Below are positions 11,872-13,620 of a stretch of DNA of 64,000 nt, one piece after another. Position numbers and translations under genes: made by a program. The notes under the pieces were generated by a model. The model worked only from the letters and a program-made list of their open reading frames with translations. It had not been told where the DNA came from and did no database searches. Origin of the DNA: a virus; IMG/VR virus record IMGVR_UViG_3300031975_001631, one strand, 5' to 3'. The first letter of the stretch is position 1. Every line of letters begins with the position of its first letter.

Positions 11872-12906
11872 TCAGTAGTCCGAGATATCTACCAATTCAA
11901 AAGAATTAATGTTGTGATTGTCATGGATCTGAGGAATCGCTCCAGCAATGTGGAATGGTGCGGGATCAGCTACTTTGATCTCTACAGCAGACTGTGCTCT
12001 ATTTACCATAGCAAATGAAGATGTATAGTAATACTGGAGGTTTACTGCAAATTCAGAAATATACCTCCTGGCTTTACTACCAGTCTTAGCGTTGGTATAA
12101 AGGATAATAGTTGCTATTGCCTTGTTCTTAGAAAAGTGTGGAAGCAAGTGCTGACACCATGCCCTCATAGCATAGGTTGGATTGTCAACAGATAAAAGAA
12201 TATAAGATCCCTTTACATAACCAGCTTTTGACAACCAAGTTTGCCACTCGTCACGACTCCTAACAACAGTGATTCCACCAGATGTACCTTCTTCCAAGAC
12301 ATCATCAAGGATTTTGTTAACGATCTTGGTTATAGCACCTCCACGAGGAGAGAAGAAGCTCTCAACTTGCAGTTCATTGTAAACGAGGTCTTCTACTGCA
12401 GATCTCTCTGGCAAGCATTCCCCAGCATTAACACAAGCAATCCCTGCCATAACAAAATCGGCCTGGCATACACCAGTGGATGCAGGACGCTGCTGACAGG
12501 CAAGAGAATTGGAAATGTAGTTAGTGATTGGACTACCGTTGTCATCGTATGAGAAGATAGCAACAATAATCCACTTCTCTCCAGCACGCTTTGCTGCAAG
12601 GATACGAGTCCTACCGTCTCTAGGACGATTGTCAGTACCAATACAAGGGGGGAAATCGCTATAAAGCCATCCATAGTTAAGGTATGAAACTTGCATTGCT
12701 TCAATCCGAGAGGAATTGTTCTGATCATCCCGGACAGCAAGGTTCCAATAATACTCATCCTCTTCATCGACGGTATCGAGATCAAGGAAAGAAAACTTGA
12801 TGAATGTTGCGTTTTTTTGCTTAGGCTTGGGTAGGTTCTTTAACTGTGGATTTTCGAGATCCAGGGTGTTGCCAAAACCTTTTCTGGTGTTTTCTGCGTT
12901 AGTCAT
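11872..12906 (-). CDS. Hypothetical protein with a ParB/sulfiredoxin-like N-terminal domain
   Basis: PPCIG...RDGRTRILAAKRAG resembles the ParB DGxxR motif. Confidence 0.55.
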   Translation of the reverse strand: MTNAENTRKGFGNTLDLENPQLKNLPKPKQKNATFIKFSFLDLDTVDEEDEYYWNLAVRDDQNNSSRIEAMQVSYLNYGWLYSDFPPCIGTDNRPRDGRTRILAAKRAGEKWIIVAIFSYDDNGSPITNYISNSLACQQRPASTGVCQADFVMAGIACVNAGECLPERSAVEDLVYNELQVESFFSPRGGAITKIVNKILDDVLEEGTSGGITVVRSRDEWQTWLSKAGYVKGSYILLSVDNPTYAMRAWCQHLLPHFSKNKAIATIILYTNAKTGSKARRYISEFAVNLQYYYTSSFAMVNRAQSAVEIKVADPAPFHIAGAIPQIHDNHNINSFELVDISDY

Positions 12907-12978
12907 TAATTCTTTAGATAAAAATCTACGGTTGTACCGTTAGGTGTCTCAGTAGCAAAAACTGTTGAGACATTATAT

Positions 12979-13055
12979 TTAGTAGGTTCCTATCGCCGCT
13001 ACTCCTGAACCTACTAAGGGGAGCACCGCAGCCAAGGTGGTTTCCCTCCTTGACC
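12979..13055 (-). ncRNA. Putative structured RNA (GNRA hairpin plus H-type pseudoknot)
   Basis: 8-bp stem plus 2 bp capped by GAAA; perfect 11-bp stem; loop GGAGUA complementary to upstream UGCUCC. Confidence 0.55.
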
Positions 13056-13060
13056 TCCAT

Positions 13061-13096
13061 ATTATACACCATTAAAAAGGGGGCGTCAAGCCCCCT
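13061..13096 (-). promoter_or_regulatory. Sigma70 promoter with -35 in the loop of an intrinsic terminator
   Basis: AGGGGGC-TTGAC-GCCCCCT-TTTT; TTGACG (13084-13089), 17 nt, TATAAT (13061-13066). Confidence 0.8.
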
Positions 13097-13157
13097 ATCT
13101 ACTTTGGTAGCGAATCCGTCGTAGAGAGTCGCGCACGAAAGAGCGACGATTTATTTA

Positions 13158-13598
13158 TTAACCTTCTTCGCCTTCAACTTTAACCTTACGACCAATATTA
13201 TACTTAGTCTCTAAGACCCAATTTCCTTTATCTTTGTAGGATAAAACTTTAATCTGATTTAAAGGAGCAATATCCTGAATCATTTCAGCCACAACTACAG
13301 AAATTAATCCCCAATCAGCAAGGAGTTGTGTAATTCTATTGCGGCGTTGAACATCATTAACAGTAAGATTTGCTTTCTTACCATCAAGAGCAAACAATTC
13401 TTTAAAGTGAACAATGAAATATCTACCTTGCTTATGTAAGATATGACAAGACTGGTATAATTTTTTTTCTTTACGAGATGCAACACCGATTCTAGTCAGC
13501 GTTTCTCGCACTTTTAAGAAATCGTCAGGTTCCCCTAGTACAACCTCAATCATGCTCTCAGGCGACCACTCAACGGTCGGTTCAATAACGACGCTCAT
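13158..13598 (-). CDS. regA: Translational repressor RegA
   Basis: DDFLKVRETLTRIGVASRKEKKLYQSCHILHKQGRYFIVHFKELFALDG; likely start MSVVIEP. Confidence 0.97.
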   Translation of the reverse strand: MSVVIEPTVEWSPESMIEVVLGEPDDFLKVRETLTRIGVASRKEKKLYQSCHILHKQGRYFIVHFKELFALDGKKANLTVNDVQRRNRITQLLADWGLISVVVAEMIQDIAPLNQIKVLSYKDKGNWVLETKYNIGRKVKVEGEEG

Positions 13599-13620
13599 GT
13601 CACAAAACAAAAACTTTTTA

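Follow-up and report, generated by a model that had tools for sequence, protein, structure and literature searches.

What is the short RNA that appears to start in the gap behind regA in a marine cyanophage, is its pseudoknot more than a chance fold, and does it serve the gene downstream or exist in its own right? The locus lies in a stretch of 64,000 nucleotides from the IMG/VR virus record IMGVR_UViG_3300031975_001631 (hereafter the window; the record itself is 92 kb and about 48% complete). The genome is assigned to a T4-like cyanophage on account of an hsp20 and a carbamoyltransferase gene in the neighbourhood, and the RNA sits on the minus strand (13055..12979) in a 251-nt gap between regA and a gene of 344 amino acids that has no family in Pfam or PHROG and whose homologs come from marine metagenomes only. 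The original prediction described here an RNA capable of forming a pseudoknot and starting at a predicted promoter, and offered a riboswitch-like leader, a small RNA or a ribozyme as possible identities. Its elements (stem 1, the GG-GAAA-CC cap, a 17-nt loop, the UGCUCC/GGAGUA pairing, TATAAT and CTAAATA) are all present on the minus strand. Read 5' to 3' on that strand, the order is the regA terminator hairpin with a -35 box in its loop, a 17-nt spacer, TATAAT, 5 nt, stem 1, GCGG, UGCUCC, CCUU, and a second stem that encloses A, GGAGUA and GCGGCGAUAG (Table 1). A 48-aa open reading frame covering the same region (12926-13072) was considered as a gene and rejected: the predicted transcript begins inside it, PHROG gives no match, and coding would be incompatible with the variation in stem length seen among homologs.

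Table 1. Features of the regA to 344-aa gene interval in the window, listed in the direction of transcription of the RNA.
Feature	Positions	Strand	Remarks
regA	13158-13610		Pfam Translat_reg match
regA terminator hairpin, AGGGGGC-TTGAC-GCCCCCT plus U run	13078..13096	(-)	From terminator scan; loop holds the -35 box of the next promoter
-35 box, TTGACG	13084..13089	(-)	17-nt spacer to the -10 box; promoter has 11/12 consensus matches
-10 box, TATAAT	13061..13066	(-)	5 nt before stem 1
Predicted transcription start, invariant G of the first conserved stem 1 G-C pair	13054	(-)	Inferred from 7-nt spacing after the -10 box
Stem 1, 5'-terminal hairpin, G13055-G13048 with C13037-U13030	13030..13055	(-)	GGUCAAGG/CCUUGGCU, inner GG-GAAA-CC cap
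Linker, GCGG	13026..13029	(-)	Same in 89/89 aligned copies; first collection search made without this requirement
Pseudoknot 5' strand, UGCUCC (U13025-C13020)	13020..13025	(-)	Partner is 13000-13005
Loop 1, CCUU	13016..13019	(-)	Same in 89/89 copies; absent from the requirements of the search pattern
Stem 2 5' strand, AGUAGGUUC (A13015-C13007)	13007..13015	(-)	99.9% paired
Pseudoknot 3' strand, GGAGUA (G13005-A13000), within the stem 2 loop	13000..13005	(-)	148/150 distinct copies form 6/6 pairs
Loop 3, GCGGCGAUAG	12990..12999	(-)	Sample not selected on loop 3
Stem 2 3' strand, GAACCUACU (G12989-U12981)	12981..12989	(-)	From comparative alignment
Late-promoter-like box, ACTAAATA (CTAAATA at 12982-12976)	12976..12983	(-)	Overlaps the stem 2 foot; aligns with TATAAATA of L135 and L139
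Leader hairpin of the 344-aa gene, GUCUCA...UGAGAC	12946..12971	(-)	Kept in L135 and L139, which lack the pseudoknot RNA; part of the gene's own leader and outside the RNA family
344-aa gene, downstream of the RNA	11872..12906	(-)	Orphan gene

The fold of the single sequence is unremarkable, with a minimum free energy of -29 kcal/mol (z = -1.45) that is equalled by 11 of 200 shuffles, and the decisive indication of more-than-chance structure comes from comparison rather than from folding energy. A blastn search with the spacer against cultured phages recovered the same stretch of some 50-80 nt in unannotated gaps of ACG-2014f, P-SSM2, P-SSM5, S-SKS1, S-B43, and S-SCSM2R, and a second query added S-SM2, Bellamy, SynMITS9220M01, S-B05, RB11-B, and S-H68. 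When IMG/VR was scanned with a 15-nt word from the loop, at least 120 loci were obtained, with about 105 true copies among the matches listed; a second scan, in which loop 3 was left unconstrained, brought the total to 150 distinct copies. A covariance model (R1) was built from 23 copies with stems 1 and 2 only, the pseudoknot being left out, and returned exactly one match per locus in 89 loci, with scores of 56-90 bits; the copy in the window reached 69 bits (E = 4e-17). In the R1 alignment, which comprises 87 distinct rows, 99.8% of the cells of the pseudoknot helix are paired and five of its six pairs show compensatory changes (e.g., UGACCC/GGGUUA, UAACUC/GAGUUA, UGCUUC/GAAGCA, and UAAUGU/GCAUUA). 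Because the pseudoknot is absent from the model, this level of pairing is not an effect of model fitting. For the structure as a whole, 94.2% of cells are paired, against 80.3% in shuffles and 17-48% when the partners are slid. Homologs with compensatory changes thus bear out the H-type pseudoknot of the original prediction, and the existence of a real, conserved family of pseudoknot RNAs anchored to a promoter can be regarded as almost certain.

Comparison also refines the details of the fold. When stem 1 is aligned with a separate anchoring, its first five pairs are paired in 96-100% of homologs and covary by exchange of UA, GC, CG, and AU, while the hairpin ranges in length from 16 to 49 nt. 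Stem 2 had been described as a perfect helix of 11 bp; comparison reduces it to 9 bp, since the two extra U-A pairs borrow the UU of the invariant CCUU, which is unable to pair in this way in most homologs. Across the family, stem 2 comprises 8-10 bp, of which the lower four pairs covary and the upper GUUC/GAAC is nearly invariant, and the pseudoknot helix comprises 6 bp. Loop 3, in the sample that was not selected on it, occurs as GCGGCGAUAG (120 copies), GCGGCUAUAG (15), and GCGGCGACAG (10), with rare 1-nt insertions, and follows the pattern GCGGC-(G/U)-A-(U/C/A, rarely +1 nt)-AG, in which GCGGC, the A and the final AG are constant. In total, about 30 nucleotides are invariant in the family. 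Loop 1 must cross the deep groove of stem 2, where its CCUU could run parallel to the GGAA at the top of the 3' strand (12987-12990) and form C+.G-C and U.A-U triples. Such a triplex would explain both the invariant CCUU and the invariant GUUC/GAAC; its positions never vary and therefore offer no covariation support, and the length of loop 1 was not found to track that of stem 2. One divergent look-alike carrying GCGGCUAUAGGAAC scores 24 bits on a contig of a Saprospiraceae metagenome-assembled genome, outside any cyanophage context (L134 5593-5663), and could be either a distant family member or a chance resemblance.

A predicted near-consensus sigma-70 promoter of the host type (TTGACA, 17 nt, TATAAT) is part of the RNA module. 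Within the 64-kb window, TTGAC-N17-19-TATAAT occurs a single time. The original prediction had the RNA begin about 5 nt after TATAAT, and this position proves to be fixed throughout the family: of 99 distinct copies, 96 have TANNNT exactly at -11 to -6 relative to stem 1, control positions giving two or three of 99, and TTGACA with at most one mismatch lies 17 nt upstream of the -10 box in 78 of the 99. Modules that overlap the end of an open reading frame lying upstream hold the position as well, with Tyr-Asp codons (TATGAT) or TATCAT acting as the -10 box. The predicted start position is a G in 99% of copies, and the pair that it forms is G-C in 99/99; as standard spacing places the start on this invariant G (13054), the 5' end of the RNA is predicted to be flush in a helix. 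An upstream terminator with the -35 box in its loop, as found in the window, precedes approximately 15 of 165 distinct copies (e.g., GGGAUC-TTGAC-GAUCCC-U7-...TATAAT).

The window carries a second promoter-like element, CTAAATA, in the 3' arm of the structure, which the original prediction read as a late promoter whose transcripts would lack the RNA. Late transcripts of this kind are plausible, because the box aligns with the late promoter TATAAATA that stands 4 nt before a conserved hairpin in relatives free of the RNA. Two such relatives, the loci L135 and L139, encode homologs of the 344-aa protein at 69% identity in the same regA-hsp20 neighbourhood, and both keep TATAAATA, 4 nt, and the hairpin GUCUCAACAG...GAGAC; in the window, ACTAAATA stands 4 nt before the equivalent hairpin. 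One or other form of the box (L135 2660-2700, L139 2930-2970, window 12946-12983), followed by the 4 nt and the hairpin, makes up the leader native to the 344-aa gene in every relative that was compared. By alignment, then, CTAAATA is the putative native late promoter of the 344-aa gene, and since relatives of this gene without the RNA retain the late promoter and leader hairpin, the early promoter together with the pseudoknot RNA is best described as a probable insertion between the regA terminator and that late promoter. A role of the RNA as regulator of the 344-aa gene was rejected, given that homologs at 69% and 36% identity have no copy and that L135 and L139 keep just the late promoter and leader hairpin. 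Further along the leader, a weak terminator-like hairpin, ACGGU-ACA-ACCGU, followed by AGAUUUUUAU (12928-12940, minus strand), lies 22 nt before the start codon of the gene and is not conserved in L135. In L135 itself (2600-2640), an early -10 box, TATAGT, is followed after 5 nt by a short hairpin, UUCGG-UUCA-CCGAA, whose GGUUCA...GAAC recalls the top of stem 2; it may be the remnant of a deletion of the pseudoknot RNA, or merely a generic 5' hairpin.

The RNA occurs once per genome in ACG-2014f, P-SSM2, S-SKS1, and the contig of the window itself, and its carriers span two unrelated virus groups, Kyanoviridae and Llyrvirus. A pattern search of 185,579 genomes of cellular species gave five matches, of which one, on a marine contig of 832 nt, was a true copy and none was in a cyanobacterium; this near-absence rules out a host origin. 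The most frequent neighbour is a tRNA gene: of 85 distinct downstream contexts, 56 have one that begins 2-5 nt past stem 2, mostly tRNA-Arg(UCU) and sometimes tRNA-Pro(UGG). Specificity for tRNA-Arg was rejected, as S-SM2 and Bellamy place the RNA before tRNA-Pro in the middle of the array though tRNA-Arg heads it, and the association is accordingly with tRNAs in general. Other copies precede genes for gp32, PurM, PurH, a PstS-like protein, peptide deformylase, DUF6561 proteins, Phd-like proteins, small membrane proteins, and orphans; at least 15 unrelated protein families lie downstream of the RNA. At three loci, L033 and L068 among them, gp32 follows at 37 nt, and in copies of the P-SSM2 type the start codon regularly falls 17-24 nt past stem 2. 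Copies of the S-SKS1 type have a full second sigma-70 promoter (TTGACT, 17 nt, TATAAT) directly after the RNA and then a gene of 74 amino acids. A promoter of its own right after the RNA, here as with the late promoter of the window, makes the downstream gene independent of the RNA unit. No recurrent terminator was found downstream of the copies, most of which are without one.

Several loci show further peculiarities of organization. The structured RNAs manA and wcaG lie within 0.1-2 kb of the pseudoknot RNA in ACG-2014f, P-SSM2, S-SKS1, and other loci. In ACG-2014f (L001 1587-1945), a manA RNA (RF01745, 90 bits) comes directly behind the pseudoknot RNA, with tRNA-Arg on one side of it and the next tRNA on the other, giving three kinds of RNA gene head to tail, and in P-SSM2 manA comes right after regA, the position that the pseudoknot RNA takes in the window. 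At L037 (2014-2560), a tRNA-Arg-like start, GGGTCAGTAGCTCAGATGGATAG, breaks off after the pseudoknot RNA and is followed by a cysteine-rich open reading frame of 153 amino acids, ARAGORN finding no intact tRNA-Arg; the reading frame may represent a homing endonuclease, or an intron that has entered the tRNA gene. For S-SM2 (L143, NC_015279.1 140661-143712), the tRNA coordinates in RefSeq lie about 55 nt downstream of those given by ARAGORN and the sequence (tRNA-Pro at 1554-1627, annotated at 1609-1682), and several CDS annotated as hypothetical proteins overlap tRNA genes. A pairing between the 5' strand of the knot and a tRNA acceptor strand is present in one phage only and was judged to be chance.

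Searches for a known identity agree with the earlier statement that no Rfam family could be assigned. At gathering thresholds, Rfam 15 gives no match anywhere in the window, including Cyano-2, manA, wcaG, PhotoRC-I and -II, and the glnA and Downstream-peptide glutamine riboswitches, and at E values up to 10 the interval 12700-13300 yields chance-level matches to unrelated families only. As a control, the same search finds manA, wcaG, and tRNAs in the homologous loci and nothing on the RNA itself. Known ribozymes (hammerhead, twister, twister-sister, pistol, hatchet, and HDV-like/theta) have no model match even at E up to 10. The HDV-like/theta fold is excluded in addition by the order of the helices, which is a hairpin followed by A-B-A'-B' and not a nested double pseudoknot, and by the location of the RNA 5' of tRNAs with its beginning at a promoter. 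A tRNA or tmRNA can likewise be dismissed, as ARAGORN finds none in the window and the Rfam tRNA model matches the neighbouring tRNAs of homologous loci and not the RNA. Homology to rnaC and rnaD of T4 was sought with R1, filters off, over T4 68000-74000; the best match reached 14.5 bits inside tRNA-Leu, with nothing on rnaC or rnaD. In the literature, a search on the loop sequence returned an unrelated primer only, and no paper describing the motif was found, although a 2023 survey of 10,006 candidate viral RNAs may include it without a name (PMC10690425). The copy in the window belongs to a widespread RNA family of marine cyanophages that has no entry in Rfam.

As to function, the reading put forward here, tentatively and at slightly under an even chance, is that the RNA itself is the product, a self-contained, nuclease-resistant small RNA of early infection. 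A gene whose product is the RNA is suggested by the fixed promoter, the buried 5' end, the knot and the roughly 30 fixed loop nucleotides, by a downstream side that changes freely and often has a promoter of its own, and by the single copy per genome. Host RNA polymerase would transcribe such an RNA abundantly right after infection, and its 5' triphosphate end would be buried in a flush hairpin. The 3' end would be made by RNase P where a tRNA follows, and elsewhere probably by cleavage within the A/U-rich spacer, where RNase E could plausibly act. A tail of 2-5 nt behind a compact pseudoknot would be too short for 3' exonucleases to engage, and an RNA protected at both ends would resist 5'-end-dependent as well as 3' exonucleolytic decay and would accumulate early in infection, where its invariant loops could bind a specific host or phage protein as decoy or regulator. 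It is a more speculative and unlikely proposition that the RNA represents a new functional class, either an unusually persistent decoy that would trap a host enzyme (RNA polymerase, RNase E/J, or a defence nuclease) at the onset of infection or a new fold for catalysis or ligand binding; the decoy version likens a knot just upstream of an RNase P site to the nuclease-blocking triple-helix elements of MALAT1-mascRNA.

The main rival to a free small RNA is a role in cis as a portable 5' stabilizer, in which the promoter and a nuclease-resistant 5' domain together form an expression cassette. The domain would lie immediately beyond the ribosome footprint and shield the transcript that follows, whether tRNA precursor or mRNA, against RNase E/J decay that depends on the 5' end, as does the portable stabilizing leader of T4 gene 32, which serves as a precedent. 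Since most copies are without a terminator, the RNA may just remain part of the transcript as its 5' leader, and the spacing of 17-24 nt to the start codon, seen in many copies, also fits a role in cis. The same reading draws on the transcription start, which coincides with the first stem 1 pair in nearly every copy, on the pseudoknot-free L135, in which a short hairpin nonetheless follows the early -10 box after 5 nt, and on the downstream genes, which are of highly expressed types (tRNAs, gp32, purM, purH, pstS, and deformylase) and at three loci include gp32 at 37 nt, the site of the leader pseudoknot in T4. Against it stand the single copy per genome, though many early genes would profit, and a complement of about 30 invariant nucleotides that far exceeds the needs of a simple stabilizing hairpin; moreover, RNase P would remove the leader at once in tRNA contexts, and in many cases a promoter for the downstream gene follows the RNA immediately. 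On balance, the cassette is considered somewhat unlikely. Taken together, the small RNA or leader among the three identities first offered remains the best fit.

The riboswitch among them has not fared as well. A compact H-type pseudoknot with invariant loops in a 5' leader does resemble the scaffolds of the SAM-II, SAM-V, and preQ1-II riboswitches, and an aptamer that senses a metabolite and controls the downstream unit could be imagined. However, an expression platform would not fit where a tRNA follows at 2-5 nt, as in 56/85 contexts, the AGGA of stem 2 is more than 30 nt away from start codons that are themselves at least 17 nt beyond the stem, terminators do not recur, the downstream genes share no common pathway, and no riboswitch family matches, all of which makes this reading highly improbable. 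Hardly better placed is a processive antiterminator acting in cis like the put RNAs of HK022, in which the newly made 5' RNA would attach to the transcribing polymerase and let it read past terminators or tRNA hairpins. The RNA is indeed promoter-proximal and heads tRNA arrays and multi-gene early units, but this position is the sole feature shared with put RNAs, and neither the lack of a recurrent downstream terminator nor one copy per genome suits such a role; to our knowledge, cyanobacteria also lack Rho, which counts against it further. A similarly slight chance is given to catalysis, whether by a new class of self-cleaving ribozyme or by some other catalytic RNA, in the processing of tRNAs or transcripts. 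The RNA is small and pseudoknotted with many invariant loop nucleotides, and phage ribozymes that adjoin tRNAs are known in the theta ribozymes (PMC10879173), but those abut the 3' ends of tRNAs, whereas the present RNA lies 5' of them, with a hairpin and a simple H-type knot where HDV-like ribozymes nest a double pseudoknot. The original suggestion of a ribozyme is not upheld for any known class, none of the models matching at E up to 10, and for a new one, cleavage at the 5' side would be pointless in an RNA that begins at its transcription start, while the variable spacer of 2-5 nt to the tRNA speaks against exact 5' maturation.

Cyanophages of Prochlorococcus and Synechococcus shape ocean carbon cycling, and very few of their non-coding RNAs are known. 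The level of conservation seen here, with about 30 invariant nucleotides, a covarying pseudoknot and a fixed strong promoter, is typical of RNAs that have a specific molecular partner. New in the present analysis are a copy with no tie to a tRNA, its insertion as judged against relatives that lack the motif, the contexts with gp32, purM, purH, pstS, and deformylase, an unbiased picture of how loop 3 varies, and the -35 box embedded in a terminator. The RNA is short enough for direct biochemistry and structure determination, and several cultured phage-host pairs carry it, so that a role in early takeover, tRNA supply, or RNA stability is testable; it also offers a clean, portable promoter-plus-leader module for cyanobacterial engineering.

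The non-coding RNAs usually cited for cyanophages are CfrI, manA, wcaG, PhotoRC-II, and glutamine riboswitches (PMC9602691). Among these, manA (RF01745), wcaG (RF01761), and PhotoRC-II (RF01717) are comparable as conserved structured RNAs that are confined almost entirely to marine metagenomes and T4-like cyanophages, where they precede varied accessory genes (Weinberg 2010, PMC2864571), but they differ in sequence and fold, and the pseudoknot RNA is distinguished by its fixed place at a transcription start and, in many cases, its fusion to a tRNA. In T4-type phages, the PeSL cassettes fuse a terminator hairpin to an early promoter at variable module boundaries (PMC2839356, PMC4122927), and the same fusion is found in the window, where the hairpin at 13096..13078 holds TTGAC in its loop and is followed by a U run and TATAAT; however, PeSLs are repeated many times per genome, mediate module shuffling and have no pseudoknot RNA, whereas here there is one consensus promoter in 64 kb and one RNA per genome. 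The leader of T4 gene 32 likewise places an H-type pseudoknot at its 5' end, followed by an A/U-rich unstructured spacer, although most copies of the present RNA, including that of the window, are not upstream of gp32; Rfam has no gene 32 model for comparison (PMC10690425). Theta (minimal HDV-like) ribozymes are also small, pseudoknotted phage RNAs that adjoin tRNA genes (PMC10879173), yet they occur at tRNA 3' ends, with a nested double pseudoknot and mainly in gut phages, in contrast to a simple knot 5' of tRNAs in marine cyanophages. Also comparable are rnaC and rnaD of T4 (species 1 and 2), small non-tRNA non-coding RNAs of a T4-type phage that lie beside tRNA-Arg(UCU) in the tRNA cluster and are released by tRNA processing. 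They stand 3' of tRNA-Arg and measure 119-139 nt, whereas the cyanophage RNA stands 5' of the tRNA, measures about 65-80 nt and has its own promoter; as two stable non-tRNA RNAs that abut tRNA-Arg, they nevertheless provide a precedent for an RNA that is itself the product.
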